DNA from: an uncultured Gammaproteobacteria bacterium
Lineage (GTDB): Bacteria; Pseudomonadota; Gammaproteobacteria; UBA9214
Length of the DNA stretch: 64,000 nt
Assembly (NCBI GenBank): GCA_963701455.1
Contig: CAVPAE010000001.1
Location: 84,841-148,840 of the forward strand
Reading direction: 5' to 3'
A program made the translations under genes and the position numbers. Under the pieces are notes generated by a model. The model was not told the DNA's origin and ran no database searches. It was given only the letters and a program-made list of their open reading frames with translations. Shown in pieces: positions 18,771 through 48,654 of this stretch (positions are counted from its first letter, which is position 1; every line of letters starts with the position of its first letter).

Positions 18771-19009
18771 TCCAACGCCAGCAACGTCAGGATACCGGGC
18801 GGCAACAGCGTGTCGCCGTGACGGACCGCGCAGAGGGGGAAACGGAGCACGGGATGAATGCCGGAATATCAATGACCGGCATCCATACGGAACGCTTGAC
18901 CTGGCGAAATGCAAACTGCCTGACCTGTGTTCAGGCCGGGCAGTTTATCAAGCAATGGTTCGCGGGCGTGTTGCCCGCGTGATGTTGCAGTATCAGAATA
19001 TCGCTTCGG

Positions 19010-20552
19010 CTATTGCTCCTTCTCCATCATCTCCCTCAGGTCCGCCTCGCGCTCGGACGTAACCGATCCTTCCCTGGCGGCCTTTTCGGTCAGCCCGGCA
19101 ATAAACTCGGCCTCACGCTTGAACTGGCGTGCCAGCTCCTCTTGATTGACGGCCACCTTGAAATCGTTCTTGCGCAACCCGATGACATAGTTGTCGAGTT
19201 TTTCGCCCATGTACAGGCGCAAGGTCATGCGGCGCGTCTGCGGCTCGCCCAGGTTAATCAGCTGGGCATCCTGCACGTCCAGCACCTTCACCAGGTGCCA
19301 GCCAGCCGGTGATTCCACCGGCCCACCCAGCACATCGGGTTCCAGGAAGAAGGTAAATTCATCCAGCTCCGGGAAACCGCTGCCGTGCAATACCCAACCC
19401 ATGTCACCCAGGGTCTGCTTCGCGGTGGGATCAATCGAATATTCCATGGCCGCCTGGAACATCGTCAGCTCACCGGCATCGATTCTCTGCTTGATGTCCT
19501 CGGCCTCCGCCTGCGTCTTCAACACAACCATCTGTACCTTGCGCATTTCCGGCACGCTGATCTGGTCCTTGTTGGCCTCGAAAAAGACTCTCAGTTCTTC
19601 GTCGGTAGGCATCCAGTCGTGTATCAGCTGACTGCGATGCAGGTTGATCAGGCGGGTCTTGCGGTATTCGCGAGTCCGCTCAACGTAGGATGGATCCGAC
19701 TCCAGACCGGCGGCGCGCCCTTTTATTGCCATCACCCGGGTATCGATGTATACATCCAGGCGTTTGAGCCGCTCGGTGTCGCTATCGAGAAAGAATTCCG
19801 CACTTTCAGCGCGCTTGTCCGCACCCCGCATCAACTCGCTGACTTCACCCCAGGTAATTGTGGTGTCATCCACCGTTGCTACGACTGTATCCTCCGTGCG
19901 CGCCTCATCACCTTCGGGGTTGAGAACATCAGGCTCTATCTCCACGGTTGCACCTTCACGAATACGTGAGCGCAGCCGGGTTTTCAGGGTATTCAGCTTG
20001 GCGTTGCGCAGACTGGCCTCGATGGCAAACCTGCTGTCCGCCGTCAGTTCATCCCCCTCCTTGGCCGTGCTGCATGAAGGACTCCTGGACCTCTTCCTCG
20101 CTAACCTGGATATCACCGTAGAGGATCTTTGAGCGGTACAGACTCGCCAGGACTGCCTCTTCAAAACGACGGATGTCCTGCTGGTAGACCGGTTGCTGAT
20201 CAACCCCCTTCTGCAAGGCATCGAGGTACAGCAGGTTGGCACTGATTGCCTTGTCCAGCAGGGTGATGATGGTCTGATTGCGCTCCGGCGTCCCGAGTGC
20301 AGGAATCGACAGGCCCACCATGGCCGAACTGTTCAGCATGGTATTGAGCAGGCTGAAGGTGATCTCCTCCGCCTCCACCGTGGCCACCACGTCGGTGAAC
20401 TCCTCGGCCGTCGCGGCCTGTGACATGGGAGCCGCGGTTGGCGGCGCGCTGCTTGCCGCCGTGTCATTCGACGGTTCGCTGCAGCCTCCCAGCAGGAACA
20501 GTCCAAGTACGATCGGTGTCAGGCATGTGAAGCTGATGTTGTTATGGCGCAT
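19010..20552 (-). pseudogene. Parvulin-type PPIase (SurA/PpiD-like) paralog 1, frameshifted
   Basis: The lipoprotein-like N-terminus (MRHNNISFTCLTPIVLGLFLLGGC) with the SurA-like N-domain is in one frame (ORF 20049..20615). The rest, including the parvulin domain (GWHLVKVLD), is in another (ORF 19010..20242). The frames switch at a GGGGG run near 20050. It is collinear with the intact 507-aa paralog at 38986..40443. Confidence 0.7.
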
Positions 20553-20656
20553 GATTGTTTTTTCCGAAGTCAGGTGAACGATATATCCTAATATACAAAT
20601 AGACTGTTGCGCCAATGGCGCCGCAGAACGGTAGCGTTCGAGGTCAAAATAAAGTC

Positions 20657-20689
20657 AAAAAAAAGGGAGAGGAAGTAGCTTCCTCTCCC
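20657..20689 (-). terminator. Intrinsic terminator downstream of cytochrome gene 2
   Basis: On the minus strand there is a GGGAGAGGAAG-CTAC-TTCCTCTCCC hairpin followed by T8. Confidence 0.75.
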
Positions 20690-20739
20690 AAACTTTGAGT
20701 CAGCTACCGGGGAGAAGTTCCTCCCCGGTGGCGTCTTTC

Positions 20740-23700
20740 TTACCAGCCGCAGTTCGAGCCGGCATAGGTGTTGGACATGTACTCCCAGGCCACTTCGGAA
20801 GCGCGTCCCTGTACCAGGTGGTTGTTCCACTTGGTGGTACAGCCCCTGCGCGACAGCGAGCTGCTACGGTCACCGTGACACGAGGTACAGACCGTGTTGG
20901 TCGGATCTTCACCGGCATTGATATCACCACCGACATGACCCAGCACTGCGATCTCCGCCTTGTCCATCATCTCGCGAGAACTGCGACCCTTGTAGGAATG
21001 CTCCGTCCAGGTCCTGTTGGTCGAGGAAATCTCACTGCTGTTATCCTGGTGACAGTTCAGACAGTAATCATCCAGTCCATCGGCCTCGGCCGTGAAGGTG
21101 TGCATCCAGGACACCGCCGCATCGTAGTTTTCCTTGATCGGCTGTCCGTTGTACGTCAGGCCATCCTCGATATGACTCGGAACACCGGCACCATTCACCT
21201 GGTGACAGGTACCGCACTTCAGCGGACCATGCGAACCGTCATGGTTCAGCGCCGCTGCCTGCTTGTACGACGTCGTGTCGATGTCCGGCGTCACCGGATA
21301 CAGACCGTGGATCGACTCGTGACAACCCTGACAGCTGATGTCCTGGTGACCACGTGAGTAACGCATCAGCGAGGCCTTGCGCGGGTAGTTGAACGGCGGG
21401 TAGGCATTGATGTTGCCGCTCTGCTCCACGAACGGTGCCGCGTGGCAGTCCGCACAGTGTGGCTCACCCGCTGACAGCCAGTGATCACGACCGTCGGTCG
21501 CTGCCGAGAACGGTACCGGTACCGCCACCGAACCCGCAGGCAGGGTCGCCTGTGCCGCCGTCACACAATCCGGCGTGGTGCAGAAGTCCATCGCATTCAC
21601 ACTGAAGTCACCGTCAACATCAACGCTGCCGCAGATATGGAACGCCGGGGCACCCGGATACTGCAGCACCGCAGTCGATCAGGCCGGTACCACCACCGGT
21701 CGAGCAGGCTGCCGCACTGGTTGACATTGACCTCAACCGTGGCCACGTTGCCGTCATGCGCCGGATCAACCGGGATGACGCCGAAGTAACCGGCCACGTA
21801 GTTACACAGACCCGGATCAGACTTCCAGATGGTGTGGGTGTCATCCACCGCATTGGTGTCCTTCGGATCCAGCCAGGAAATGGCCTGTGCCGTCGGTAGT
21901 ACCCGACCGCTGCAGCCACATCGCGCCAGCGTAGCACCGGCACGGCTCACGCACGTTGGCCATGCATCACCCGGCTGTGCATCACCAGGTCTTCCACGTT
22001 TTCAGCCTTCCACATCTCCTGACCCAGCTGCTGGTGACAGTTGGTGCACCACAGACCGCCGTTGACACTGTTGCCGTCGTTGAACACGTTGTCCGACAGC
22101 CACTGGCCGACCGGATTCAGGTGCTCAGGTGTCTCGGCACCGTCGGTATCCTTGCCCGGGTTGGAGTGCACGTCACGGCCGACGAAACAGCCGCCGTTGG
22201 CATCGCGGTTATCCGTAGTGGCGTAGAAGTTCTCGCCAGTCAGCGTGATCGGGTAGCCGCTCATGTCGCCGCTGGAACGGTGCGCCGGGTGACAACCCTG
22301 ACAACCACCATTACGGCCCTCACCGTCGCCAAAGACGATGTCACCACCCTCACTGACGCCCCGGTGATTATTATGGATCGCCTCGGTCACCGGCTTGATA
22401 ACCTGACTTCGCCATTGTGCGTGCGCTGATTTAACCACCGCAATGACGTTATCCGCATGACACTTCTGGCAGATCACACTCTCGTGACCCAGACGCGTGT
22501 TCTGCGGGGCTACCCCACCCACATCCGCGCCCGGATAGTTCGCCGTGAAGCTCGTGCCGTGCTCGACGTCATGGCCGTGCAGCATACTGATGGCCGCACT
22601 CTTCAGACGTGAGTACCAGTCCGAGTCACCGGCACCCGTATCGATGCCGTAGTAACCGCTCCAGAAGTTGTACTCCTGCTGCACCAGTGCCCACTGGGCC
22701 GGATCATCGTTCGGCGTGTTCGGCGTCATCGGTGCATTCGAGTGACAACGCTCGCAGTTCGGGATGTCGATCGGTGCCGTACCGAAACCGATCACCGGAT
22801 TACCCGCGCCGTCCAGCACTGCCGTGCTCGTTGGCACCGCCGTCGTAGTGATACATCTGTGCCTTCATGGCCACGTACGGACGTACCGAGTCCTCATCCA
22901 CCAGTCCGGGATCACCGAAGAAGTCGATGCTGTCCTCAAACGGTGTCAGCGGCAGACCCAGGGCCTCCCAGATGTTCGGCGAGGTCAGCATGATCGGCAG
23001 GTTCTCCAGTACCTTCATCTGCGTGAACACCACCGTGCCGTGTTCACCGGAGAAGGTCAGGACGTTGCCGTTGGAGAAACCGCCGCAGTCGTTGGGGGCA
23101 CCGCCCGCGGTAACCGGACCCATCGGGTGCAGTGCCGGACCACAGTCTGCCGGGTAGGCAACCATACCGTCGACACCGAGGCGGATCTTGTCGGCATCCG
23201 CCGAGGTACCCGTGCTGTTGCTGCCTTCCAGATTCTCGTAGAAGTACAGGTGGTTCCACACCGCATTCTGGTAGTTGTCGGTGGGATCAGTCAGATCGCC
23301 GTCACCCAGTACCACGCCGTCGGCACCGTTGTAGGAACCGGTCACGAAGGTACCGTCCGGATTCAGCGCCGCCGAGTCGAACGTGGTGTTCCAGGCCATC
23401 AGCGAGTTGCCCTCGACCGCACTGATCAGCGTGCTGGTCTGGCGCTTGCCGTTGCCGTCGTTACGCGGCTGCGCATCGTGCCAGTACTTCAGCACGTATT
23501 TCTTGAAGTTGCCGCTACCGTCCAGCTCCAGATCGCGCAGTACCGTCTGGCGTCCCAGCGCATCCTTGCCTTCGTTCGGATCGCCTTCCATCAGGCGGGC
23601 ATAATCACCGTTGTCGATCCGGGTCAATGGTGTTGGGCTTGACCACCTGCGCCAGGATGGAGTTGTACACCGGCAGCACGCAGCAGTAGGCAAACTCGAA

Positions 23701-24315
23701 ACCGGTGCAGTGCATGCCCAGCTCGTAGTTCATCATGATCTTGAAATCGGTCTGCGGATTGTCCAGACCAATATCAGGTGGAGGCAGTGGCGGCAGTGTT
23801 GTCGTGGTGGTTGCCGTCCCTGTTGTCGTGGTCGTCGTCGCCGTGGCCGTTGTCGTGGTCGTCGCCGTGGCCGTGGTCGTGGTCGTTACCGGAGCCGTGG
23901 TCGTGGTCGTCGCCGGTGCCGTTGTCGTGGTCGTTGTCGTGGTCGTGGTCGTTGTGGTTCCTCCAGTGACGTTCACCGTGACGCTGGCAGAACAGGTGTG
24001 ACCTTTGTCATTCTGACCATTCAGGGTGGCCTGGAAGTTACCGGCAGCAGCATAGCTGACAGTCACATTCTGTGAACTGGAGCTTGAAGGAGAACCACCG
24101 GCAAATGCCCATGAATAAGCTGTATGGACTTTTGCCCGTGACAGTGCCGTGAAACTGACTGAGCCACCGACAGCAATCTTCGCCGGGCTGGGTACGGTGG
24201 TAATCGAACAGTTGGCAGACTGGGCGGCCTGGGCGTTGGATACACCCAGCAACACCAGCGTACAGAGCATCAGCCCGGTTACTGCAGTTGAAAGAAATCG
24301 TTGCGCTAGAGACAT
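20740..24315 (-). pseudogene. Giant multiheme cytochrome paralog 2, split into at least 5 frames
   Basis: Fragments 23605..24423, 22800..23693, 21947..22837, 21597..21950 and 20740..21669 together rebuild the same architecture as paralog 1. They include the signal peptide, a long poly-Thr linker, the NYELGMHCTGFEFAYCCVLPVYNSILAQVVK motif and all the heme motifs (CERCH, CQKCH, CQGCH, CTNCH, CADCH, CQGCH, CGTCH, CLNCH, CTSCH). Confidence 0.8.
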
Positions 24316-24425
24316 GGCACTTTCCCCTATTGTTATGCGACTGTCCAGGTCGTAAAACATTCTGGTTGTAAACATTCCGGGCCGACATCGGCTCCCTTCC
24401 GGAATAGCGAGACGCCTAAACAATA

Positions 24426-24600: not shown

Positions 24601-25549
24601 TCAGGCTGGTGTCATAACAGGTGTCACTGCTTCATCAAAATCATCTATCTTGCTTGCTGCTACAAACAAATCAAAGCTCTGACTCCTGATTAGCGGGATT
24701 TTCGAGCAAACTTCGTCAAAAGCCACGAGCCCACGCGCCACCGATTCCGCCGCGGGAATCCATTTCATGACGGGCAGCAGATCACTCATTCCACACAGGG
24801 GCTGGGAAAGAAAAGAAAAATACTTTGTCGCATTGATCCGGAACCCCGCAGCTTCAATGGTCTTCAACCAGGGTTTGGATCTGAATGCCTTATGATCATT
24901 ACCAAAGCGCGCCATTCGCCTGTTTACAATGCTCCGCGGCAAGCGCAGCAATATCGAGTCATCATTGGGTTCGGAAAGCAACAAGGTTCCGCCGGTTTTC
25001 AATACCCGATGGGCTTCTGCAAGGGCTGCCCGCTCATTGGCCATATGATGCAAGGAGCCGCGAAAACATACGACATCGAAAATACCGGAGGGAAACGGCA
25101 TTTTCTCACCCGGACAGGCTATCCACTCCATCTTTTCGTTGTCACCCAGCCTGGCCTTTCCCTGGATCAGCATTGCCTTCGAAATGTCCATACCGAAGAC
25201 GCGCTGTCCTCTGCAGGCACAGGTCCCGGGAGAGGTCGCCATCACCACAGCCGCAGTCGAGAATATAGCCGGGATCAGGAGGCAAGTGCTCCAGGAATTG
25301 CCGGTTCCAGTAGCGAGAGTAGACTTCCGAGAAGTCTGTGCTATATCGCTTGTCATACTCACCGGAAAGTTCCTTGTGAAGATCGATCTCGGCCTGGTGC
25401 TGCTCTTCCAGGTCACCACCTGCCGTGAAGTCGACTATTCCCCGGTCTATTGAAAACTCTCTGGAACAGGAACTGCACTTGCGCGCTTCCCAATCCAGTT
25501 CGCTCTTGCATTCCGGACATCTGAGTACTGTATTAGATTTCTGATCCAT
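24601..25549 (-). pseudogene. Class I SAM-dependent methyltransferase with an N-terminal zinc ribbon, frameshifted
   Basis: The N-terminal fragment (ORF 25142..25549) carries the zinc ribbon (CPECKSEL..CSSCS) and motif I (ILDCGCGDGD). The rest of the methyltransferase fold (VVCFRGSLHHMANERAALAEAHRVLKTGGTLLLSEP) is in the frame of ORF 24601..25419. Confidence 0.6.
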
Positions 25550-25558
25550 TGAAGACCA

Positions 25559-26449
25559 CTATTGATTCCGGCGTGAGATACCAGTTCCCAGTCTCCAGAG
25601 TGCCAACAGCAAAACCGGAAAGAGAATATTAATAATAAACTCCAGCACCAGTACCGGCGGAATCGCCTCGGGAGCTACACCCCACGCCCCTAGCAATGTC
25701 AGCAGAGAGCCTTCCCGAACACCAATCCCCGCAATACTGACCGGAAGGCTCGCCAGTGCACCAACACTAACCGTTATCGCGACAATATCGAGCCAGTTCA
25801 GGTCAATGTCCACCGCCCGGAATATCAGCACATTGCTGGACACGAACATAAAAAAGCCGGCGCCCGTTAATATCCACCCTGCCAGCAACGCATTCCGCCC
25901 CAGCCTGCGTCCAAACCAGTACGATATCAGGAAGTACGCCAGCAACAAAACGATTCCGGACAGTAGCAGCAGGTTTGCCGATACCCCGTACTTCGTACTA
26001 ACCACGCCGGCTGTCAGAACAATCGCGACCGGAAGGTACAACAGGTCTGATAACTTATCGAATACCGTAACCCAGACTCTCTTGCCGGTATCCATCCCGG
26101 TATTGCGGAGCAGATATATGCGCGAGAACTCTCCCAGGCGTGATGGAGTAATCGACCCTATTGCGACACTCAGAAGATACAGGTCGATCCACGCACGGAA
26201 GGGCAAGCGTTGCGTCGCAAGCCGTTCAACCCACAGGCGCAACCGCAGCATGCGAAAACAGTAAACCAGACTAACGGCCAGGGCACTGCCGAGGAACAAC
26301 GGTATCGATACGTTCTGCAATCGATCCATAGACCCCGCCCAGTCTATATCCCGAAGCAGGTAATAAACCCACAGCAGACCGCCCAGGGAGATTGCGGCTT
26401 TCGCGATGTACCCGGCCCTGGCAGTGGACGCTTTTTTATCGATACGCAC
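25559..26449 (-). CDS. Flippase-like integral membrane protein (lysylphosphatidylglycerol-synthase TM-region family, UPF0104-like)
   Basis: It is a 296-aa polytopic protein. Its topology and size match the flippase-like family that often partners GT2 polyprenyl-phosphate glycosyltransferases. Confidence 0.5.
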   Translation of the reverse strand: MRIDKKASTARAGYIAKAAISLGGLLWVYYLLRDIDWAGSMDRLQNVSIPLFLGSALAVSLVYCFRMLRLRLWVERLATQRLPFRAWIDLYLLSVAIGSITPSRLGEFSRIYLLRNTGMDTGKRVWVTVFDKLSDLLYLPVAIVLTAGVVSTKYGVSANLLLLSGIVLLLAYFLISYWFGRRLGRNALLAGWILTGAGFFMFVSSNVLIFRAVDIDLNWLDIVAITVSVGALASLPVSIAGIGVREGSLLTLLGAWGVAPEAIPPVLVLEFIINILFPVLLLALWRLGTGISRRNQ

Positions 26450-26506
26450 GTTGAATACTATTCTGGCCGAATAAAGATATAACGCAGCAGCAATCGACAG
26501 TTCCCA

Positions 26507-27553
26507 TTATGTCGGTATTCTCACACGAACCAGCGGGCCAACCGAGCGGTGAACCCATCGTGGCAAGTGACGCCACAGCGCTATTGCGGGAGCCAGAGAC
26601 GGATTCTCCGGCAAAATCTGCGGCACCCTATGACCCGGCTTCAGAAGATAATAATAATTCAGGGGCGTCTCGACCGCGCCCCACTTGCGCTTGAAAAAAC
26701 GCTTCCCCGAATCCGCCCGGGTGCGCCCGAAATCGAAATTCGTCACCTTCCCTGCTGTTATGGTTTTTTCAAAATACGCCCATAGCAGTTTATCCATCAC
26801 CGGTATATGCCGGTAATTCGCGTCATTTATCGCAGCATGCAATATTGCCTTGTCCTCATGGTATAACACCATCAATGCACCAATCGGGGTTCCCTGAACA
26901 CTTCCTGTTATGATTTCTGCCTGCTGGCCAAATTTCTCGACAAGCGTCGGGTACCAGGACCGCTTGTGAATGGGTGTGCCGTGATAAGCTGCATGCTGCT
27001 CGTTAAGCTCCTGGAATACGTCAAGCTGACTGCCTTCACAGAAGGACACCTGCACGCCGAACTTATCCGCCTTTCTGACACTTGTCCGGGCATTTCCCGT
27101 TATCGTGTCCTTCCACATCTGCTCTACTGTATCGGGAAGAGTCAGCTCATAGCGAACGAAATCTCCTCCGGATTCGAACCCTTGCAGCGGACTCTCAAGT
27201 TCCCTGATTTCCAGGGCAAACGCCTTTGTTGCACTGAAGTATTCGTGCAGAGGCAACTGCAATTGTTCTTCAGAAAACGAAGCCGGGTCTTTGTTGTATA
27301 TAAAGCCCCCGTAATTCCCGAATGGCACTGAAATCAACATGGGCCGCAACTTGCCTATTGGCTTGATCTCGACCAGGGGCAGCAGCCAGACAAGCTCCCC
27401 GGAGTCGTCGACGCAGGCCAGTCGATGCAACCGTAACCGGGGATACACCTGTGCAATCAGTTCGAGCCAGCGCGGATCCTGATAAATTGAACCGTAGCTG
27501 GTTTCCCCGCAAAGCTTGCGCCACTCGTCTGCCGGGCAACAACGGATTTTCAC
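26507..27553 (-). CDS. FemAB-family / BioF2-like GNAT-fold acyl- or aminoacyltransferase
   Basis: It is 348 aa. The size and the pattern of conserved aromatic and charged residues match the FemAB/CelD-like fold. The assignment is by resemblance only. Confidence 0.45.
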   Translation of the reverse strand: MKIRCCPADEWRKLCGETSYGSIYQDPRWLELIAQVYPRLRLHRLACVDDSGELVWLLPLVEIKPIGKLRPMLISVPFGNYGGFIYNKDPASFSEEQLQLPLHEYFSATKAFALEIRELESPLQGFESGGDFVRYELTLPDTVEQMWKDTITGNARTSVRKADKFGVQVSFCEGSQLDVFQELNEQHAAYHGTPIHKRSWYPTLVEKFGQQAEIITGSVQGTPIGALMVLYHEDKAILHAAINDANYRHIPVMDKLLWAYFEKTITAGKVTNFDFGRTRADSGKRFFKRKWGAVETPLNYYYLLKPGHRVPQILPENPSLAPAIALWRHLPRWVHRSVGPLVRVRIPT

Positions 27554-28374
27554 GCAGCACGTGCCTCAGCACGAAACTCAATGAATAGTACGAGAAAAAA
27601 CAGCAGCACAATAAACCCTGCACCCGTGATGATCATGCGACGTTTATTATTTGATGGATCACTTGCGACAGCAACACTCTCTTCCAGTATAACCAAGCCA
27701 TGTTGCCCACTGATTGAATACTCGATAATTGCGTAAACACTGTGTCTGCTTCCGGGCAAGGCCCCGTTGTTCTTTAAGGAATAGCCAATCTGCTGTTCTT
27801 CTCCGCCAGGGATACTCAGTTTGTCACTCCTCCCCGCCACGACAAGCTCGGCAGGTGAAACCATTGTTAACCGGGCCTCAAGGGGGGAATCCATGGTGTT
27901 CCTGATGCGCAGATCCAGGCTCCCGTCACCAGCCACCTGCTCTGCAACCATCTCTCCCGCAACCGGAACTTCCAGCGGAAGACTTTTCCCGATCTGAACG
28001 CCCGTCACGCTAACCAGTGAGTACGGGTACATGTAGGCGTCGTGAAAGCGTAATTGTACGATCAGTGGATACACGCCGGCTTCGGGAAAGGCCAGTTCAC
28101 CAACAGGAAAGCTGTGGACCCATATCCGCCCTCCATCAAATGCAACATGAGGTACGGTTTCAAGGCCTGTTTTCACTCCGGCCAGTGTGAGATAGGGAGT
28201 AACCACGAGAGCATCCTCGTTGCCCCTGTTGTCAATCTCCAGTCGAACATCCACCGATTTTTCTGTTACGGTAACCGAGGTTTTTACGACCATTACAATT
28301 TCTGACGCAAGGGCAGGAGCCGGGGAAAACACCATGCACACAATCAATGAAAGGAATCTCCATCGGCAGATCAT
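27550..28374 (-). CDS. Hypothetical single-pass membrane protein (signal peptide, beta-rich periplasmic domain, C-terminal TM anchor)
   Basis: It has an N-terminal signal peptide (LSLIVCMVFSPAPALA) and a C-terminal TM segment (IITGAGFIVLLFFLVLFI). Confidence 0.4.
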   Translation of the reverse strand: MICRWRFLSLIVCMVFSPAPALASEIVMVVKTSVTVTEKSVDVRLEIDNRGNEDALVVTPYLTLAGVKTGLETVPHVAFDGGRIWVHSFPVGELAFPEAGVYPLIVQLRFHDAYMYPYSLVSVTGVQIGKSLPLEVPVAGEMVAEQVAGDGSLDLRIRNTMDSPLEARLTMVSPAELVVAGRSDKLSIPGGEEQQIGYSLKNNGALPGSRHSVYAIIEYSISGQHGLVILEESVAVASDPSNNKRRMIITGAGFIVLLFFLVLFIEFRAEARAA

Positions 28375-29336
28375 TGCGACCCTTCGTCAAGTGTACTTTC
28401 CATTATGCTAAAAGGCTTTTTGCTACCGCTGCCGTTACCATAGTAAATTCGAATCAGGTACTCACAAACAATTCCTGTAGTAAACATCTGGCCGGCAAAC
28501 AAACACAGCAGCACCCCCAGAAAGAACATCGGTTGGTAGTTCGCTATCGCCAGCAAGCCCAGCAATTTACCAATACCCAGCCACCCGAGTATCAGAAATC
28601 CGGGCACTCCCGTTAATACAGAGATATAACCGAATATGTGGATCGGGCGGTTAAAGAACCCGGAAAAAAACAACAGCAGGACAAGATCCGACAGGACCCT
28701 GAATGTCCGCCCGAAGCCGTAGTTTGAGGTACCGTGAATTCGTGGTTGCAGTTTTATTGGCAGTTCCGTGATATGACTTGTCTGCATTGCCATAAAAACA
28801 GGGATAAAGCGGTGCATTTCCCCGTAAATCGGTATCTCTCTGGCCAGTTCGGTCCGGTACGCCCGATAGGTAGAACCGAAATCCTGGATATCAAGCCCCG
28901 AAAACCGTCGCGCTATCGCATTGGCCACTTTTGAAGGGAAACGGCGTATAAAGGCATCATTGCGCTGGAAGCGGTAACTGCAAACAAGATCGTATCCCTC
29001 CTTCATCTTGTCTATAAATTCCGGTATCTGCTCAGGGGCATGCTGCAAATCCCCGTCCATGGTAATACACATTTCCCCGCTTGCCTGTTCTATACCCGCC
29101 TTGATGGCAGCAGTCTGCCCGCAGTTTTTTCTAAAGCGGATTCCCTGAAACCGCGGGTCTTTCCTGTGCTCATCCCTGATCCTGTTGAAGGTTTGATCCG
29201 TACTGCCATCATCCACGAATATGACTTCGAAGGTCTCCTCACCGGATTCCAGAACCTTGCGCAGCCGCTCCGCGAATATAGTCACATTTTCCTCTTCGTT
29301 GAAGAGCGGGACTATGATTGATATATCTTGTTTCAT
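28371..29336 (-). CDS. GT2-family polyprenyl-phosphate glycosyltransferase (DPM1/GtrB/ArnC-like)
   Basis: It has IVPLFNEEEN...VIFVDDGSTDQT and DxD motifs, plus two C-terminal TM helices, which is typical of the GtrB/ArnC/CsbB type. Confidence 0.8.
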   Translation of the reverse strand: MKQDISIIVPLFNEEENVTIFAERLRKVLESGEETFEVIFVDDGSTDQTFNRIRDEHRKDPRFQGIRFRKNCGQTAAIKAGIEQASGEMCITMDGDLQHAPEQIPEFIDKMKEGYDLVCSYRFQRNDAFIRRFPSKVANAIARRFSGLDIQDFGSTYRAYRTELAREIPIYGEMHRFIPVFMAMQTSHITELPIKLQPRIHGTSNYGFGRTFRVLSDLVLLLFFSGFFNRPIHIFGYISVLTGVPGFLILGWLGIGKLLGLLAIANYQPMFFLGVLLCLFAGQMFTTGIVCEYLIRIYYGNGSGSKKPFSIMESTLDEGSQ

Positions 29337-30226
29337 AGTATTAAGTAAGAACCAAATTGGTTGTTATGATTGCCGACAATTTCAGCAACTTCGTCACTTA
29401 AGAGAAACTCCATTTCCTCCTGGCGCGCTTTCCCGAGAAAAAATCCGCCATATTCATGGTTGAATCTCGCATCATTTTCATCGAACGGGTACCCAAGATG
29501 AAACATCCATTCTATGGTCCTGGTGCTGTCCAGTGTAACAAATGCCTTCAACAATTCGATCGCATCCGGATAGCGGGTATTGCCGCTAAGCAAAACTCCA
29601 AATGTAGTGTCGGGATGGCGCAATCCTCCCCAGATGCCTGCCACCTGCCTTGACCGCCACTCCAGCAACTCAAGCTTGGCCCGTTGCAACTGACTTCCTT
29701 TAACTGCAACCCCCTTTCTTTGCAGGTCCTTCAGCAAAGCCTTTTCGTTTATTAGCCGCACTCTTCCTATATTGAATTCCGCGGCCAATTTGCCCACTGC
29801 CCGGGCCGACTCCGGAATCAGTATATGGGTATGCTTTTCTCCATCCAGGTGCGTAGGCACAAAATTGCGCTCCAGCATGAATTCAATCTGTCGCCTGTAT
29901 TCCGTTTCCACTTCAGAGGCGGATAATTTCCCCCGCACTGACCTGGTCATTAAACGGGCCACTGAATTCAGGAACCGCCCGTCATCGCCCACCAGGGATG
30001 GCACGTCTTCCGGACTGGAAAGCGGCCGCCCCCTGACAATATTCAGATGCAGCCCTACACCCAGTCCTGCACAGTCTCGCGCCTGCTCCAGAGCGTCTTC
30101 CGCTGCCAATCCGTTGGTCATGAGACTGGCGCTACCCAGGACCCCCCTTTGCGCAACCTCGACGATGGCGCGGTTGACCTCCTTGTTGAGCCCAAAATCG
30201 TCCGAATGCAGTATTAATGCTGCCAC
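29333..30226 (-). CDS. YdjC/ChbG/HpnK-family carbohydrate deacetylase
   Basis: The N-terminus (MAALILHSDDFGLNKEVNRAI) has the conserved D-D-F-G signature of the YdjC family. It overlaps the GT2 gene. Confidence 0.7.
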   Translation of the reverse strand: MAALILHSDDFGLNKEVNRAIVEVAQRGVLGSASLMTNGLAAEDALEQARDCAGLGVGLHLNIVRGRPLSSPEDVPSLVGDDGRFLNSVARLMTRSVRGKLSASEVETEYRRQIEFMLERNFVPTHLDGEKHTHILIPESARAVGKLAAEFNIGRVRLINEKALLKDLQRKGVAVKGSQLQRAKLELLEWRSRQVAGIWGGLRHPDTTFGVLLSGNTRYPDAIELLKAFVTLDSTRTIEWMFHLGYPFDENDARFNHEYGGFFLGKARQEEMEFLLSDEVAEIVGNHNNQFGSYLIL

Positions 30227-30228
30227 AT

Positions 30229-33072
30229 TCAGGATTCCTTTTCAGGGCCGTAAAAGACAATCGGCCGCGACCATGCAAACGGTTTGCCGTCCACCTCCAG
30301 CCGGATCCTGTAATAATAAGTGCCACCGGGCTGGAAAATTTCCTGAAATCTTTCCTTCGACCCGGCTGCATCCCTGGTAACAAGGACATCCTGAAACTCC
30401 GGGTCCGTAGCAATCTCGAGGCGGAATCGTTGCCTGCCGTTTGGAATCCCGATGACATTGTTCCAGAAAAAGTCCTCCGTAGCCTCTGAAAGAACCTGCC
30501 CCTGTTGCGGCCGTATGGTGACCGGGATACGCAAATAAGCTTCGGACACAACCTTGACCACGAAGACACCGATGAACACCAGTGAGATCATTACCGGAAC
30601 ATTCCGCAGAACCAGCCCTGTCCCTGGTCTGCCTGCCTCGCCAGCTCCTTTACCGCTTGCAATAGCGGGGACCGGGCGTCGCATCCCGAATATCACCAGT
30701 GCGGCAATACTGGCCAGTGCAATCCAGAAGCCGACGACCGACCAGCGCCAGTTATTCGGACCGGTATAGCGCCAGGACACTTCATGAGTTCCGGCCGGCA
30801 CCAGTACCATCTGCAATCCCGGGGAAATGCGGTAGATGGGTGTATCCGTACCATCGAGAGAGGCTCGCCAGCCCCGATAGTACATTCTCTTGAATAGCAC
30901 CGGAGCCAGGTCTTCTGTCACTGTAAGCTTAAAAACTTCTTCCTTGCGATCGGCTCGAACAACTTCATATTCCAATGGCTCCAGCTTCATCTTGCCAGCA
31001 TCCCTGGCAGCCATTCCGGTTTTAAGCTTCAGCAATATCTGCGCTACCGGCTTCTTGCCCAACGATTCCAGTTGCAAATGCTCAACATCTTTCAGTACAG
31101 CAGACGCTTCCGCCCCGGCTCCCAAAACCACCAGGTTTATCAGCGGGGCAATTCTTTGTTCATCTTCGGCCGACAAACCGGAGTTTGAGAAATTCACGAT
31201 GGGAGGTATTTCTGATGCACCATCGCGAACCCGGGCAAGCCACTTCTCCATCAACAAATGCCATTCCCGCTCCGTTCCAAAAAAACCTGCCAGGTTCGCC
31301 GGCATCAGGTCGAAGTCTCCGAATTCCCCCTTGATTCGAACCATCTCCCAGAAGTTTGTTTCGAACAGAAGCTCGGTATTTTCATGCCATGCCATCGGTT
31401 CCTTGCGGTAAAAGGGACTGTTGACCACGTAGCGAATATTGAACAGCTTCTGAATAGCATAGTTATCCCTGAGAGGCCCCCGGAATCTATGTAAAAGGAG
31501 ATCGTAGATTCCGCCAACCACCTCGAAACCGCAGATAAAGACCAGGCGATCCGACATCAGCGGCAATATATTGTAGAGTACGGAATCGTGGTGCAACTGG
31601 GGAAAGCCCATAACATTGCCTGCCTCACCCACCTCCAGTTGATCGACCACTGACTGGAACTCCGCCCACTCACGGACTATTCCAGGCTTCATTGCAAGCC
31701 TGCCGTTTTCCGTATAAATATTTCTGACATCAATGATCCGCTTGGCGGCAACCGTCCTTTCCGTGTAGCCGCTCGCAAGTGCCCCGGCAACACATAGCGC
31801 TATTACAGCCACCAGGGAGACTCTCAATGAATCCTTGCGTATCGCTGCCGCCTTCGTGAACAGCCAGCCGATCGCAAAACCTCCCAGCATAATCGCTGTC
31901 CAGTCGAGCATGAAGATGCCGTGAATATTCTGGAACTGCTTTGCAAAGGGTATATAGTCAATCAAGGGGAAATCATCGGGCCCCATAAACAGAACCAGGG
32001 AAATGAGAAAAGACAGGCCCAGAAAAGCGCGGACAGGTGAGTTGCAACGGACCAGTACCAGTATCCATCCAAGCACGGCAAAAGTGGTGATTACCGGAAA
32101 CCGCCAGAATTGACCGTTCTCGATCCATCCCCACTCCGCATCAACAATCCATTCGCTCCCCCCGAATGGCCCCGAAAACCTGGTTGTATCGAAAATACCG
32201 CCTAAAAATAACTGGCGCAGAGTCTCCGCGGTCGTCGACACGATCACGTCGAAATAATTACGTCGGCTCAGATACGGATCGAATACCTGCGCCTCCGGAG
32301 AGGTGGCAAAGGGAATCAGCCAGATGGCCACCAGGCAGATGGCAGGAATACTCCATAGCAAGGTACGGACAAACGTGGCCTTCCAGTTCCAGTTCGGCTC
32401 CAGCGCGGCAAGCGACAGCAACATACAGGGTGCGAGTAAAGTGAAACAGTAGGCGATATAGGGATGCGTTATAAACATGCACGGAAACACGATCGCGAAT
32501 AACAGTCCATGCTCCCCTGTTTTAAACAGCCGCCATAGTGAACCCACAGCCAGGGGGAACAGCAGAATCGCTATCTGTTGTTTATAAACACCCAGATACT
32601 GGTACGCATCAATAGAGTGACCCCACAGGCTGATTGCCAGTGGCGAAAGCAGCGCGGCACCAAGCGAGGCCCCTAGCCCCATCCCCAGTAATCTGCCACC
32701 CAGAAAAATAGTAATCGGATAGAGACTGAAACCCAAAAGAACAACCAGTTTCAGGGATTCTTCTACCGTAAGTCCTGTTAAAAAATGGGTGGCCGCAGTA
32801 ACAGCGTAAAACCCGGGAGGCCGCAGTATAAAAATCGGAGTGCCAGCTGCATAAAGCTGGTTCCAGCCAAGGAAACGGCCTTCGCCCTGCCAGATCCGGA
32901 CCAGTTCATTAGCGAACGCAACATGGACGTGGTCATCGCCGGCATTAAGATAGCCATCGTTCAGTGTCGGCAGGTGGATGTAGAAAGCCCAGCACACCGC
33001 CGCAAAAAGCAACAGTATTGCTGCGATACGTACGCCACGCTCGCTGATTCTCCAGGTCACCATACTATTCAC
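30229..33072 (-). CDS. Large GT-C-fold membrane glycosyltransferase (YfhO/ArnT/PMT-like) with a C-terminal periplasmic domain
   Basis: It is 947 aa with more than 12 TM helices, followed by a soluble C-terminal domain of about 250 aa. It lies adjacent to the GT2 and deacetylase genes. Confidence 0.5.
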   Translation of the reverse strand: MNSMVTWRISERGVRIAAILLLFAAVCWAFYIHLPTLNDGYLNAGDDHVHVAFANELVRIWQGEGRFLGWNQLYAAGTPIFILRPPGFYAVTAATHFLTGLTVEESLKLVVLLGFSLYPITIFLGGRLLGMGLGASLGAALLSPLAISLWGHSIDAYQYLGVYKQQIAILLFPLAVGSLWRLFKTGEHGLLFAIVFPCMFITHPYIAYCFTLLAPCMLLSLAALEPNWNWKATFVRTLLWSIPAICLVAIWLIPFATSPEAQVFDPYLSRRNYFDVIVSTTAETLRQLFLGGIFDTTRFSGPFGGSEWIVDAEWGWIENGQFWRFPVITTFAVLGWILVLVRCNSPVRAFLGLSFLISLVLFMGPDDFPLIDYIPFAKQFQNIHGIFMLDWTAIMLGGFAIGWLFTKAAAIRKDSLRVSLVAVIALCVAGALASGYTERTVAAKRIIDVRNIYTENGRLAMKPGIVREWAEFQSVVDQLEVGEAGNVMGFPQLHHDSVLYNILPLMSDRLVFICGFEVVGGIYDLLLHRFRGPLRDNYAIQKLFNIRYVVNSPFYRKEPMAWHENTELLFETNFWEMVRIKGEFGDFDLMPANLAGFFGTEREWHLLMEKWLARVRDGASEIPPIVNFSNSGLSAEDEQRIAPLINLVVLGAGAEASAVLKDVEHLQLESLGKKPVAQILLKLKTGMAARDAGKMKLEPLEYEVVRADRKEEVFKLTVTEDLAPVLFKRMYYRGWRASLDGTDTPIYRISPGLQMVLVPAGTHEVSWRYTGPNNWRWSVVGFWIALASIAALVIFGMRRPVPAIASGKGAGEAGRPGTGLVLRNVPVMISLVFIGVFVVKVVSEAYLRIPVTIRPQQGQVLSEATEDFFWNNVIGIPNGRQRFRLEIATDPEFQDVLVTRDAAGSKERFQEIFQPGGTYYYRIRLEVDGKPFAWSRPIVFYGPEKES

Positions 33073-33596: not shown

Positions 33597-35198
33597 TTAA
33601 TGCTCCTCGTTGATCGAAAAATTCAGTATCTCTATGCGAGCGGACCTATAAAGCAATCCCGGGGCAAGCGCCTCTCTCACAATCATCAGGGTATCGCTGA
33701 GGTCGATCATCCCGTCCGGCGCGCCCTGTGGTCGCACGTCTCCATGCTGGAGATGCGACGTGGTGGCGGTCAACAACCCCAAAGTGATTCGCTCGGCAAG
33801 CAGCACGTCCGCGGCGTCCACGGCCCCGGAGGCATCCAGGTCGCCATCCGCGAAGTTGAAGATCAGCGGCAGCGGGATCATTCACGTCCAGGAAGCCGTC
33901 ACCATCATCATCATCGTCGATGTCGTTGTCCTCGCCGTCGTTGTTGGTGTCGAGCGGATTGGGATCACTCACATCCGGCATCCCGTCGTTGTCGTCATCC
34001 GGGTCGATATCATTGTCGAACCCGTCGTTGTCGGTGTCGAGCGGGAATGAATCACTGCCGTCCGGTATCCCGTCATTGTCATCATCCGGATCGCAGGCAT
34101 CTCCCATGCCGTCGAATTCCGTGTCCAGCTGGCTGGAGTTGTCCACCAGGGGACAGTTGTCATCGCAGAAGACGCAGACATCGCAGGGCTCACAGACGCC
34201 ATCCCCGGCCCCCGGTACAGTGTCGCAGTCCTCATGGAACGGATATTCACAACCCAGACCGACAATGCCTGCAGTGCAGGTCCCCCAGGGACTATTGTAA
34301 GGCTCCGCCGGCCAGTCGAGCAGTTCCGTGCACAGGGCATCTCCGGCAACACCCGAGCCGTCACCATCCGCGGGGATCTTGTCGTCGTCTTCATCGAAGA
34401 GATAGAGGAGTTGCTTGCCTGCCACGGTAGTGTCCGCAGGAAAGTACTCCATGGACGGGAGCGAACCCTCATCACAGGCGGCCCCCGAGTGGTCTGCGGA
34501 ATAGATGCCGATCGTCGCCGTCTCTTCGGTTATGGGTATTGAGACCGCTCCAACCCATGGCTGCCGTAATTGAACTGGATGCGCCCGTCTTCATAGAGGA
34601 TCAGCTGGATGTTGTTGCCGGTGGTGTTCGGGTCCCCGGATGAACTTCCGCCCTGCCAATGAAAGACATCCTCCCAGGTCACGATGAACCGCTTGGGTGA
34701 TGACACGGAATCCAGCCGCCACCAGATCTTGCCGTTTTTCTCGCCTTGAGGCACGCCGGAAGCATATTGGGTCACAATATCCGACCAGAAGAGCACGATC
34801 ATCGGATAGGGATAAAAGTCCTGGTTCAGGTCTCAAGGGGAAAGTGATAATTATAGTTATCGTCCCAACCCCCCAACGGACGGCACGGCGTCCGGAGGGG
34901 GTAATAATGTTGATCCCAGGGTGACGAAGCCATTGGCATTGATGTAGACCTCATCGTAGTTATTACAGTAGAAAGGAAAATTGAATCCCAGTGCGATACC
35001 GGGGCCAGTCTCGAAGGGGTAAAAATGGTCATCTTCCAGCAGGGTATCGGCCCCGAAGACAGGCTCCGCCGGCCAGGCCGCATCGGTGATTTTCAGTACA
35101 TACTGTTTGGCAGTAAACGCTGGCAGGTACTGCAAGTGCAAGTATCAGGACCAGGAAACAGCCTTTGGTATACAACCTCTTTGCATGACTGGTTAACA
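33597..35198 (-). pseudogene. Secreted Ca-binding protein with thrombospondin type-3-like repeats and a dockerin-like C-terminus, broken by at least 4 frameshifts
   Basis: The signal peptide (MLTSHAKRLYTKGCFLVLILALAVPA) is at about 35198. N-domain fragments are in ORFs 34857..35141 and 34530..34802. The TSP3 repeats ([22 protein letters not shown]...) are in ORF 33646..34452, and the dockerin-like segment ([18 protein letters not shown]) is in ORF 33597..33881. Confidence 0.5.
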
Positions 35199-35798
35199 TG
35201 TCACTGACCTCCGGCTATTCGATCTGGTGCCTTGTGCTCCGTGGCAGGTTGTTCTAGTCTGGCTTGTGCCGGTCTCGCCCTCGATGTAGGCCTCGATATC
35301 GGCCGCCGTGATCTGACCGGTATAACGTGCAACCGATGTGCCGCTCGGGGACACGATAAAGGTCGTTGGCAATGCCATGATCAGGCCGAAAGGCGTGGCC
35401 GGTGAGGTGCCCCAGGGCAGGATCGGGTAGGTCACATCCACGCTGTCCAGGAAAGCCCGCATCCAGCTCAACCTGATGTCCTCGAAGTTCACTCCCAGCA
35501 CGACCGCATCCTGGTCCTTGTGCCGGTCATGAAAGTCCGATAGCTCCGGCATTTCCTGGATGCACGGCGGACAGGTCGTCGCCCAGAAATTGACAACCAC
35601 CCACTTGCCCCGGTATTCCGCTAGCGTATGCAGATTGCCGTCCATGTCCTTCAGGGAAAGTTCGATAGGTATCCGTTCGGTCCCTGCCTCGGCGGCTGTC
35701 AGCGTAGCCGGTCCACAACAAAAAACAGCCACCAGCAACAGAACGGCCGACCGGAATGACCTGGATATCAGCATGGTGGTTCGCGTATCGGCTGACAT
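35193..35798 (-). CDS. TlpA/ResA-like thiol:disulfide oxidoreductase (second copy)
   Basis: The active site is WATTCPPCIQEMP, and there is an N-terminal anchor. Confidence 0.75.
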   Translation of the reverse strand: MSADTRTTMLISRSFRSAVLLLVAVFCCGPATLTAAEAGTERIPIELSLKDMDGNLHTLAEYRGKWVVVNFWATTCPPCIQEMPELSDFHDRHKDQDAVVLGVNFEDIRLSWMRAFLDSVDVTYPILPWGTSPATPFGLIMALPTTFIVSPSGTSVARYTGQITAADIEAYIEGETGTSQTRTTCHGAQGTRSNSRRSVTC

Positions 35799-36331
35799 GA
35801 CGGGCCCCCGCTATTCGCCCGTGCGGCGCAAGCGCCACGACCTGACGGACGCCTCGATCTCCAGCAGGTCGAAGGCAAGCGCCCCGCCGGGGGCAATGCC
35901 CGCGAAGCGCACCCGTGGCCTTGACCACGTCCTGACGCCGGATGCCCTTGTTCTAGCATCCATTCATCCTGTGCGGGGGTAATCCGTATCCGGATCACGT
36001 GGACAGACTGTTGTACGGGCCTGGCCGTGAAGTGGGTTTCACCGATAATGGTCTGTCGGCTCTTGGCCGGATCCACATCCTCCTTGTCACGGTAGATGTG
36101 ATAGAACTTGAACCGGTCTTCAAAGACGGTGCCCAGGTATTTTTCCGGTTCCCTGTGCATGAGATCCAGCGGGACATCCCGCATGGTCAGGACCTGCTCA
36201 TCCGCTGCAACCGGGATCCAGGGGCTGGTATTCGGGTTTTCAGCGTTTGTTGCAGTTGCAGTTTCAGCCGCGGCCACTGTCGTCATGGAAAGCGACATCA
36301 TCAGTAATGCCAGAACAATTTTTTTCATCAC
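35768..36331 (-). CDS. Hypothetical secreted protein with an uncertain C-terminus
   Basis: It has a signal peptide (MMKKIVLALLMMSLSMTTVAAA). The Gly/Arg/Pro-rich tail looks like read-through rather than real protein. Confidence 0.35.
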   Translation of the reverse strand: MMKKIVLALLMMSLSMTTVAAAETATATNAENPNTSPWIPVAADEQVLTMRDVPLDLMHREPEKYLGTVFEDRFKFYHIYRDKEDVDPAKSRQTIIGETHFTARPVQQSVHVIRIRITPAQDEWMLEQGHPASGRGQGHGCASRALPPAGRLPSTCWRSRRPSGRGACAARANSGGPSCQPIREPPC

Positions 36332-36509
36332 AACTCCCGTCTTTATTATTACGGATGGTATCTACACCATCCTTGTAAAATTCTTCCCGTAGGAGCGGTC
36401 TCTTCATGCCCGCTTTCCGGCTACTGGCCGCGCTTAGATGCCCCGAACCATCGCGCCGAAGGCCTGCGTTCATCCACTGCACAGGCCAGGCCCCGTACAT
36501 TCACCTTCG

Positions 36510-48651: not shown

Positions 48652-48654
48652 TGA

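Follow-up and report, generated by a model that had tools for sequence, protein, structure and literature searches.

What does a compact set of sugar-transfer genes do inside a cluster of multihaem cytochrome genes? The question is raised by a 64,000-nucleotide stretch of DNA from an uncultured gammaproteobacterium (UBA9214; contig CAVPAE010000001.1, positions 84,841 to 148,840), which we refer to as the window. Positions 24601-33072 of the window carry, on the minus strand, one densely packed operon-like run of seven conserved genes, hereafter the cassette. A first-pass annotation, made from the sequence alone, had read this run as a periplasmic glycosylation module and had pointed to the poly-Thr linkers of the neighbouring cytochromes as its possible targets. 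Independent comparative evidence from related loci supports that interpretation overall. On balance, homology and gene neighbourhood moderately favour the view that the cassette was acquired horizontally as a self-contained operon and serves lipid-linked O-glycosylation in the periplasm, with Thr/Ser-rich linkers of exported proteins as the targets.

Organization of the cassette

Pfam and NCBIfam searches recovered all six gene types that had been named, each on the minus strand at the position given to it; a seventh conserved gene, encoding a protein of 274 residues, had been overlooked. Read along the minus strand, the cassette starts with a 947-residue open reading frame (ORF) at 30229-33072 (probable ATG start at 33063) for a YfhO-like glycosyltransferase of the GT-C fold, recognized by Pfam YfhO, an AlphaFold2 (AF2) model, and Foldseek. 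It continues with the genes for a YdjC-family carbohydrate deacetylase (29333-30226; Pfam YdjC, E = 2e-52); a family 2 glycosyltransferase (GT2) of the polyprenyl-phosphate sugar synthase type (ArnC/GtrB/DPMS) with a hydrophobic C-terminal segment (28371-29336; Glycos_transf_2, E = 4e-30); the overlooked 274-residue protein, a membrane-anchored tandem beta-sandwich in its AF2 model (27550-28374); and a FemAB-like transferase of the tandem GNAT type (26507-27553; Acetyltransf_6, 8.7e-10; FemAB, 6e-9). The last two genes encode a membrane protein resembling the flippase domain of MprF (LPG_synthase_TM, here LPG_TM; 25559-26449; PF03706, E = 3e-29) and a frameshifted S-adenosylmethionine (SAM)-dependent methyltransferase with an N-terminal zinc ribbon (24601-25549, longest ORF 24601-25419; Methyltransf_11, E = 4e-19). 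Three junctions (FemAB-like/274-residue protein, 274-residue protein/GT2, and GT2/YdjC) are 4-bp overlaps, and the YdjC and GT-C genes are separated by 2 bp. A promoter and terminator scan of the 24-34 kb region gave a number of sites not above that in shuffled sequences.

The G+C content of the cassette is 0.522 versus 0.604 in the remaining window, which points to horizontal acquisition; the host of the window, a gammaproteobacterium, probably acquired it in this way. The cassette lies approximately 0.08 below its surroundings both in the window and in L001, a locus of the same lineage. In the Desulfobacterota loci compared, it differs from its flanks by at most approximately 0.05.

Predicted functions of the cassette proteins

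The GT-C protein is predicted to consist of an N-terminal multi-helix membrane domain, a large periplasmic domain, two more transmembrane (TM) helices, and a C-terminal FN3-like domain. Pfam YfhO (PF09586) matches it with 32.2 bits against a cut-off of 28.5, the match covering residues 168-257 of an 835-position model. The same family is assigned to 12 of its homologues in precomputed annotation, and hhalign aligned its family profile with P0042, a YfhO-annotated protein (PF09586) that is itself uncharacterized (98%, E = 2e-13, 603 columns). Structure prediction, a check that the first-pass annotation had proposed, yielded a model with a GT-C fold (pLDDT 80.9, pTM 0.82), and the structural neighbours that Foldseek found for it in the PDB were GT-C enzymes throughout: AftD (9e-10), STT3 (3e-8), AglB (6e-6), PglB (8e-6), AftA, DPY19, and Pmt4. 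Within the YfhO/ArnT/PMT type assigned earlier, the GT-C fold and the relation to YfhO were retained. The ArnT/PMT part was not, as Pfam and NCBIfam gave no PMT_2 or ArnT match at E <= 0.01; the best analogues are PgtC2 and PgfM1, described below.

A G-D-D-H-x-H motif with a downstream Glu lies directly after TM1 (helix 8-34) of the GT-C protein, and Gly42, Asp43, His45, His47, and Glu53 are at least 90% conserved among 17 homologues of 37-85% identity. The positive-inside character of the N-terminus would place this motif outside the cytoplasm, and by analogy it occupies the position where GT-C enzymes hold their catalytic acids. The adjoining ArnC/GtrB/DPMS-type GT2 gene supports, again by analogy, a polyprenyl-phosphate-linked sugar as the donor.

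In comparison with PDB sequences, GT2 was aligned with ArnC (8e-42) and GtrB sll0501 (6e-32) over residues 4-299 and with DPMS (3e-23) over residues 4-262. These full-length alignments predict a polyprenyl-phosphate sugar synthase, in agreement with the earlier assignment. The protein is ArnC-like but not ArnC, since it scores 159.9 bits with the ArnC equivalog NF007986, whose cut-off is 529. The deacetylase had been labelled YdjC/HpnK, of which the YdjC half stands (PF04794, 179 bits versus a threshold of 29.7; chitooligosaccharide deacetylase in the PDB, 2.5e-13). The HpnK half, and with it a hopanoid pathway, was rejected because the score with TIGR03473 is 125 bits against a cut-off of 232.6 and none of the loci contains hpn genes.

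The FemAB-like protein passes the Pfam thresholds for FemAB and Acetyltransf_6. Its closest model is the XrtA-associated TIGR03019 (pepcterm_femAB; E = 8e-52, 176 bits versus a cut-off of 260), and no exosortase was seen in the cassette loci. The LPG_TM protein exceeds the thresholds of both PF03706 (102.7 versus 33.4 bits) and the TIGR00374 flippase-like domain (46.3 versus 43.2 bits), so its earlier description as a flippase protein resembling the TM domain of lysyl-phosphatidylglycerol synthase was correct at the family level. It is a candidate flippase for the lipid-linked sugar, as the cassette contains no GtrA- or SMR-type flippase and the LPG_TM gene is kept in a reduced variant of the cassette (L017, described below). 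PDB sequence searches with the FemAB-like and LPG_TM proteins returned nothing meaningful. Inspection by eye, rather than with a predictor, found no signal peptide in the YdjC, FemAB-like, and methyltransferase proteins, which are presumably cytoplasmic.

The 274-residue protein belongs to no Pfam or NCBIfam family. Its AF2 model (pLDDT 84.9) has a signal peptide, two tandem FN3/Ig-like beta-sandwiches, and a TM anchor at the C-terminus; a catalytic fold is absent, and Foldseek matched it with RbmA and with transglutaminase C-terminal barrels (E ~3e-8). Judged from this model, it is probably a periplasmic accessory or scaffold subunit. The methyltransferase gene is broken by a 1-nt insertion near 25213, as seen by three-frame translation and by DNA alignment with the L001 orthologue. 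One frame encodes the zinc ribbon and SAM motif I (LDCGCGDGD), and a different one encodes the remaining domain; the intact gene would span 25549-24601.

These assignments suggest the following pathway. On the cytoplasmic side of the membrane, GT2 would load polyprenyl phosphate with an N-acetylhexosamine (HexNAc), using a nucleotide sugar as the donor. The YdjC protein would then strip the N-acetyl group from polyprenyl-P-HexNAc and expose a free amine, as NaxD does on undecaprenyl-P-GalNAc. The FemAB-like enzyme would re-acylate this amine, probably with an amino acid from aminoacyl-tRNA, and the methyltransferase, where it is intact, would add a methyl group. The conversion of GlcNAc to GlcN and then to aminoacyl-GlcN has precedents in mycothiol and bacillithiol synthesis. 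The LPG_TM protein would move the lipid-linked sugar to the periplasmic face, where the GT-C enzyme would attach it to the hydroxyl groups of Thr/Ser in disordered poly-Thr linkers, and the tandem beta-sandwich protein may assist this transfer. In the window genome, the acceptors are likely the two intact nine-haem cytochromes encoded at 14951-18511 and 40828-44481.

Cassette loci in other genomes

Homologues of the GT-C protein are rare. A word-indexed search returned 42 matches, and an exhaustive search of 1.84 billion representatives returned 194 at E <= 1e-30, most of those listed aligning to the C-terminal FN3-like domain only. This domain (residues ~846-941, window 30229-30520) is homologous to a repeat that occurs up to 33 times in giant proteins of 1000-5000 residues, which make up the majority of the matches listed in the exhaustive profile search. 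Beyond metagenomic relatives of 85-87% identity, the nearest homologues are 37-53% identical and come from metagenome-assembled genomes (MAGs) of Desulfobacula, Desulfobacteraceae, Desulfohalobiaceae, 'Deltaproteobacteria', and Nitrospirae.

The same cassette, in near-identical gene order, is present across these phyla, namely in the window lineage (L001; the GT-C gene in L018 and L019) and in about a dozen other loci from these MAGs or from metagenome contigs. GT-C and GT2 genes were found wherever the contig reaches, and LPG_TM was recognized in all loci but L014, where none lies within the 23 kb read. Where a locus is of sufficient length, the YdjC and FemAB-like genes occur together, and L017 lacks the two of them; their joint presence and joint absence fit a coupled step of deacetylation and re-acylation. 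Homologues of the 274-residue protein are encoded in L001-L003, L008, L010, L011/L012, L013, L014 (a weak match), and L017, and were not detected in L006, L007, L015, and L016. About half of the cassette loci have the methyltransferase. Within 10 kb of the cassette in the distant loci, there is no homologue of the window cytochromes. Judged from these neighbourhoods, the cassette is an independently mobile unit and is not specific to the cytochrome cluster.

The variant cassette in L017 (12501-16494) has a LamG (Laminin_G_3) membrane protein in place of YdjC and FemAB, and its GT-C gene is split into ORFs of 799 and 127 residues, comparable to the split in L012 (803 and 133 residues). The gene directly upstream of it encodes a lipoprotein-like protein of 699 residues in which two linkers are rich in Thr. 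The cassette of two Desulfobacterota-type lineages interrupts a set of type IV pilin or pseudopilin-like genes (GspH, N_methyl, PilX_N, and DUF7305), which lie at 5481-9762 and 18928-21325 in L002 and at 6761-9415 in L015 and are also seen in L003 and L016. In the PilW-like member of this set, the poly-Thr linker is accompanied by an additional domain at the C-terminus. Just upstream of the GT-C gene in L002, L003, and L016 lies a divergent, conserved gene of approximately 200 codons without an assigned family. These three loci suggested a pilin-specific system, an idea that was rejected as a general rule because the other loci lack prepilin motifs.

Thr-rich proteins beside the cassette

All six reading frames of every locus were scanned for ORFs with at least 11 Thr/Ser in a window of 15 residues. 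In nine independent contexts, the gene for a secreted protein whose long linker is rich in Thr lies 0.05-2.6 kb from the cassette. Outside the window lineage, every context with an adequate flank has such a neighbour, except L006 and L007, of which one flank only is visible. Inspected by eye, the neighbours have N-terminal export signals; their families are unrelated. In L002, L003, L016, and L015 they are prepilin-type minor pilins extended at the C-terminus, and in L011 and L017 they are lipoprotein-like proteins with (D)n-poly-Thr or (TSTA)n linkers. L009 has an FN3 and dockerin protein, L008 has a coiled-coil protein, and L014 has a protein of Cys-rich repeats followed by a Thr/Pro/Ala tail. 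L010 (3-1661) and L013 (8003-8950) have a choice-of-anchor-U protein that ends in a CFI-box putative sorting motif (…GGSGGxCFIKSLM), and the window adds its cytochromes to these families.

The enrichment is statistically supported. Poly-Thr/Ser ORFs number 11 of 346 in the cassette loci versus 6 of 1306 in cassette-free cytochrome loci (Fisher p = 1e-4), and at least three of the latter six are antisense artefacts. The six-frame matches in L001, L006, L025, L027, and L028 are likewise out-of-frame or antisense readings of acidic or Gly-rich repeats. A test of the distance to the cassette within 10-kb flanks, combined over the nine contexts, gave p = 2e-6. The proposal that Thr-rich linkers are the targets was thus open to refutation by comparative genomics, which it withstood. 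The cassette does occur without the cytochromes, yet where the flank suffices it adjoins other secreted poly-Thr/Ser proteins.

Cytochromes and frameshifts in the window

The cytochromes of the window belong to a widespread conserved module (36417-44481) of a nine-haem cytochrome, a PpiC-type peptidyl-prolyl isomerase (PPIase), a seven-haem cytochrome, a small protein (p187), and a thioredoxin-like protein. The two intact nine-haem genes, both on the minus strand, encode the candidate acceptors. The protein encoded at 14951-18511 (MHC1186) has nine CxxCH motifs, a signal peptide, an N-terminal domain, and a poly-Thr linker (18047-18103), and that at 40828-44481 has a signal peptide, acidic disulfide repeats, and a poly-Thr/Ser linker (44143-44253). 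Two further copies on the same strand are broken. Copy B, a nine-haem pseudogene (20743-24423) only 178 bp from the cassette, is found by tblastn in pieces in frames -2, -3, -1, -3, and -2 and contains a long poly-Thr tract (23794-23970); copy C, a seven-haem gene (36417-38982), is split among frames -2, -3, -1, and -3. The poly-Thr tracts noted in the first-pass annotation are thus real, and cytochrome copies do stand on both flanks as it had stated. However, those directly adjoining the cassette are frame-split pseudogenes, and the intact poly-Thr cytochromes are further out.

The middle part of copy B is 92% identical at the protein level to MHC1186, and by this comparison copy B is a recent duplicate of 14951-18511. 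L001 has no cytochrome on that side of the cassette. The cytochrome, PPIase, and cytochrome segment at 14951-24423 is therefore a recent lineage-specific duplication, which accounts for the presence of cytochromes on both sides of the cassette. Approximately 13 frameshifts fall within 19-39 kb (19010-24423 and 33651-38982). They affect a PPIase copy (two frames), copy B (five pieces), the methyltransferase (one frameshift), a TSP3-like protein (four pieces), p187 (two pieces), and copy C (four pieces), and they reflect either real pseudogenization or local assembly error. The six core cassette genes (7.5 kb) in the middle of this region are free of frameshifts, for which the Poisson probability at the local rate is 4e-4, and are 77-87% identical to their intact L001 orthologues. 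Their integrity amid the frameshifts suggests selection. The large window genes outside 19-39 kb are intact full-length ORFs with full-length family matches.

The module was surveyed among 225 metagenomic relatives, and the counts given here cover 80 loci (L018-L097). All module cytochromes share the motif N-Y-E-L-G-M-H-C-T-G-F. The N-terminal extension of the nine-haem protein is hypervariable and includes acidic disulfide repeats, cadherin-like, PKD or PKD-like domains, poly-Gly, and poly-Asp/Glu. The family was not identified in the literature, including that on PCC3 and iron oxidizers. Literature searches on threonine-rich linkers in cytochromes and on PF03706 with glycosyltransferases yielded nothing useful.

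Whether genomes with this module also carry the cassette had been suggested as a check, and the outcome was negative. Only two of the 80 loci contain it, L018 and L019, both of the window lineage and the latter on the same contig as L001. The cassette starts approximately 2.2 kb past the thioredoxin gene in this lineage, and four of the other 78 loci (L028, L047, L050, and L062) expose the equivalent position, with 3.3-5.5 kb visible past the thioredoxin gene or to the next cytochrome gene; they contain neither cassette nor poly-Thr. The cassette was therefore rejected as a fixed part of the module. Poly-Thr N-terminal linkers among the 80 loci are confined to the window lineage (the window, L018, and L019) and two short contigs whose flanks are not visible (L034 and L055), while homologues with the same N-terminal domain, for example those in L042, L051, and L058, have a short Gly/Pro linker at the poly-Thr position. 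In the loci compared, the cassette and the poly-Thr linkers co-vary in both directions. The proposal that such linkers are the targets is supported by the nine adjacent contexts and by this restriction within the cytochrome family; a tie specific to cytochromes did not hold.

Other genes of the window were noted in passing. An acidic thrombospondin-type-3-repeat (TSP3-like) protein is encoded at 33646-35111, between the thioredoxin gene and the cassette. It has 524 residues, is intact in L001, and was met only in cassette-bearing loci (the window, L018, and L019). A phosphate regulon (PstC/B-like, PhoR, PHO4 transporter, PhoU-like, and PPK2) occupies 419-12377. A sigma-54 activator gene and a System I cytochrome c maturation operon (CcmA-like, CcmB, CcmC, CcmF, and CcmH) occupy 45173-54497. 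CcmF is 75-78% identical to the proteins of Thiohalobacterales and Thiogranum MAGs, a similarity that places the host in the Gammaproteobacteria close to these groups. The CcmA-like ORF (47101-47817) covers just the first 80 of the 137 positions of the ABC_tran model and may be damaged.

Nature of the acceptor

Several points weigh against lipid-linked O-glycosylation of Thr/Ser-rich linkers. It is drawn from homology and gene neighbourhood rather than from a glycan, glycopeptide, or lipid intermediate. The GT-C protein is a remote relative of the characterized YfhO proteins, with a Pfam match that spans 90 residues; a PDB sequence search with its profile gave nothing meaningful, and the fold matches of its model include both polysaccharide transferases (AftD and AftA) and protein transferases. 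Membership of Acetyltransf_6 does not imply aminoacyl-tRNA as a substrate, and for the FemAB-like enzyme this donor is a candidate. On the acceptor side, the intact poly-Thr cytochromes are 6-8 kb from the cassette, and the nearest poly-Thr gene is a pseudogene. L006 and L007 have no poly-Thr gene in their single visible flank. The linker in L014, with 9 Thr/Ser in 15 residues, is under the scan threshold and was accepted by eye as rich in Thr/Pro/Ala. The control for the enrichment consisted of distal flanks and unrelated loci rather than whole genomes.

The alternative that survives best, although we regard it as improbable, is that the cassette attaches a modified hexosamine to a non-protein envelope acceptor (lipid A, the lipopolysaccharide (LPS) core, an exopolysaccharide, or another glycan), as the Flm, Lgm, and Arn systems do, and that the poly-Thr neighbours are coincidental. 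The trio of GT2, YdjC, and GT-C follows the logic of the NaxD/Lgm pathways for lipid A hexosamine, ArnC is the best PDB homologue of GT2, and AftD, the best structural match of the GT-C model, is a polysaccharide arabinosyltransferase. Every host lineage (Gammaproteobacteria, Desulfobacterota, and Nitrospirota) is diderm, and diderms as a rule make LPS. A polysaccharide acceptor is also kept alive by the uncharacterized Pap polysaccharide cluster of Pseudomonas, in which a FemX-like GNAT gene adjoins a YdjC gene (PMC7716237), a pairing that also counts against a protein acceptor. However, the GT-C protein is YfhO-like and has no ArnT/PMT_2 family match, and no genes for LPS or lipid A are recognizable in the annotated flanks of the cassette loci, some of which do contain additional GT2 or PMT_2-like genes. 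An envelope acceptor also leaves unexplained both the Thr-rich adjacency in nine contexts (p ~1e-4 to 1e-6) and the confinement of the cytochrome poly-Thr linkers to the cassette lineage.

We give still less weight to a split MprF-like system, in which the FemAB-like enzyme would aminoacylate a hexosamine-lipid, LPG_TM would flip it, and the GT-C enzyme would put the head group on a membrane lipid to form a charged glycolipid. MprF joins a flippase domain of the LPG_synthase_TM family to an aminoacyl-tRNA-dependent transferase. The FemAB-like and LPG_TM genes are adjacent and in the same order wherever both are recognized (with one small ORF between them in L012; L014 has no recognized LPG_TM), and a free or aminoacylated amine would make the head group cationic. 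Against this, L017 has LPG_TM, GT2, and GT-C without FemAB and YdjC, which indicates that the flippase-like protein is independent of aminoacylation. Lipid-synthesis genes were not found alongside the cassette, and the poly-Thr association would be unexplained.

That the window cassette is a decaying, functionless remnant of the 20-kb region at 19-39 kb, or that assembly errors there preclude any statement on its function, is very unlikely: the frameshifts do include one in its own methyltransferase, but other loci do without that gene (the sequence read in L003, L010, and L015 shows no copy), the six core genes are unbroken and closely match intact L001 orthologues, and the large genes outside the region are sound.

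Wider interpretation

Periplasmic O-glycosylation of Thr/Ser-rich linkers thus remains our preferred reading of the cassette. A broader reading, which we offer tentatively and regard as doubtful at present, is that it represents an unrecognized, mobile Gram-negative system of protein O-glycosylation. A tRNA-dependent FemAB-type enzyme and an MprF-type flippase would provide an N-aminoacylated, at times methylated, hexosamine built on polyprenyl phosphate, and the YfhO-like GT-C enzyme would transfer it to poly-Thr linkers in surface proteins of the host. The linkers would be an evolvable glycosylation tag that emerges in a protein family on the arrival of the cassette. In sediment Gammaproteobacteria, the acceptors would be large multihaem cytochromes; in Desulfobacterota and Nitrospirota, this part would fall to minor type IV pilins, lipoproteins, and adhesins. 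The literature searched contained no description of the cassette.

So far, streptococci are the only bacteria in which a GT2 and a YfhO-type GT-C enzyme have been shown to carry out lipid-linked glycosylation of disordered regions rich in Ser/Thr. If our interpretation is correct, this type of glycosylation would extend to diderms of at least three phyla, with unusual tailoring on the lipid carrier (deacetylation, FemAB-type re-acylation, and methylation) and a new role for an MprF-like flippase domain. It would also explain why sediment bacteria repeatedly have poly-Thr linkers in their pilins, their adhesins, and their large cytochromes of the periplasm or the cell exterior. Linkers that carry sugars could shield long stalks from proteolysis or hold them extended, which is relevant to models of extracellular electron transfer. 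The cassette is self-contained and approximately 8.5 kb long; therefore, it is directly testable in a heterologous host.

Comparison with known glycosylation systems

The first-pass annotation had likened the cassette to lipid-linked pathways that flip a sugar and then transfer it. By analogy, the core of that comparison holds: GT2 is a homologue of ArnC, GtrB, and DPMS, YdjC belongs to the NaxD family, and the GT-C fold carries an acidic motif. As the best analogue, ArnT/PMT is replaced by PgtC2/PgfM1, together with NaxD/Lgm for the deacetylation.

NaxD, a member of the YdjC superfamily, deacetylates undecaprenyl-P-GalNAc (PMC11279074). Like Francisella FlmF2-NaxD-FlmK, Acinetobacter NaxD, and Bordetella LgmABC(D), the cassette would combine a GT2 polyprenyl-P-HexNAc synthase, a YdjC-superfamily deacetylase, a flipping step, and a GT-C transfer, and this pathway order explains the position of the YdjC gene between the GT2 and GT-C genes. 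The GT-C enzymes of the Flm and Lgm systems are ArnT-like and act on the lipid A phosphate, and these systems have no FemAB-like enzyme, methyltransferase, or LPG_synthase_TM protein. The ArnC-ArnD-ArnE/F-ArnT pathway, which adds L-Ara4N to lipid A, is similar in that ArnC is the closest solved structure to GT2 and the lipid-linked sugar is deacylated in the cytoplasm before flipping. However, ArnD belongs to another deacylase family, flipping relies on an SMR-type protein, and the sugar ends up on lipid A.

The LPG_TM and FemAB-like genes recall MprF, the lysyl- or alanyl-phosphatidylglycerol synthase-flippase, in that an LPG_synthase_TM domain is encoded beside an acyl or aminoacyl transferase, an arrangement that suggests modification of the head group followed by flipping. 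Unlike in MprF, the two are separate genes, the transferase is FemAB/Acetyltransf_6-like and not of the MprF C-terminal family, and the presumed lipid is polyprenyl-P-hexosamine rather than phosphatidylglycerol.

Among GT-C enzymes that act on exported proteins, Pseudomonas aeruginosa TfpW arabinosylates pilin (bioRxiv 10.1101/2020.04.19.049825). TfpW and the actinobacterial Ppm1/Pmt O-mannosylation system resemble the proposed pathway in using polyprenyl-P-sugar donors and Ser/Thr acceptors, and they bear on the pilin-embedded cassettes in L002, L003, L015, and L016. They differ in their GT-C families, in their sugars (D-Araf and mannose), and in having no deacetylase or FemAB tailoring. Closer in its enzyme pair is the glycosylation of lipoteichoic acid by CsbB/YfhO in Bacillus subtilis and GtlA/GtlB in Listeria (PMC5836110), in which a GT2 and a YfhO-family GT-C enzyme use a C55-P-sugar outside the membrane. 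Their acceptor is absent from Gram-negatives, their flippase is GtcA/GtrA-like, and they have no tailoring enzymes.

The closest experimentally established analogues are the streptococcal GtrB/PgtC2 pair and the PgfS/PgfM1(/PgfM2/PgfE) system of S. mutans. PgtC2 and PgfM1, GT-C enzymes with a YfhO domain, are paired with the GT2 enzymes GtrB and PgfS and O-glycosylate poly-Ser/Thr regions outside the cytoplasm; in pgf, the adhesins that serve as targets are encoded in the same cluster (PMC11092751). The cassette has the same pairing of a GT2 enzyme of the polyprenyl-P-monosaccharide type with a YfhO-domain GT-C enzyme whose predicted catalytic motif is outside the cytoplasm. As in pgf, candidate target genes stand beside the enzyme genes, and the putative targets are poly-Ser/Thr disordered regions of exported proteins. 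In contrast to the streptococcal systems, the cassette is described from its genes, its GT-C protein is remote (YfhO, 32 bits over 90 residues), and it adds the YdjC, FemAB-like, MprF-flippase-like, methyltransferase, and beta-sandwich anchor proteins and has no epimerase. What would be new relative to the known YfhO-type O-glycosylation is its occurrence in diderm hosts (Gammaproteobacteria, Desulfobacterota, and Nitrospirota), the deacetylase/FemAB/methyltransferase arm with an MprF-like flippase, and a mobile cassette that travels with poly-Thr linkers or induces them.

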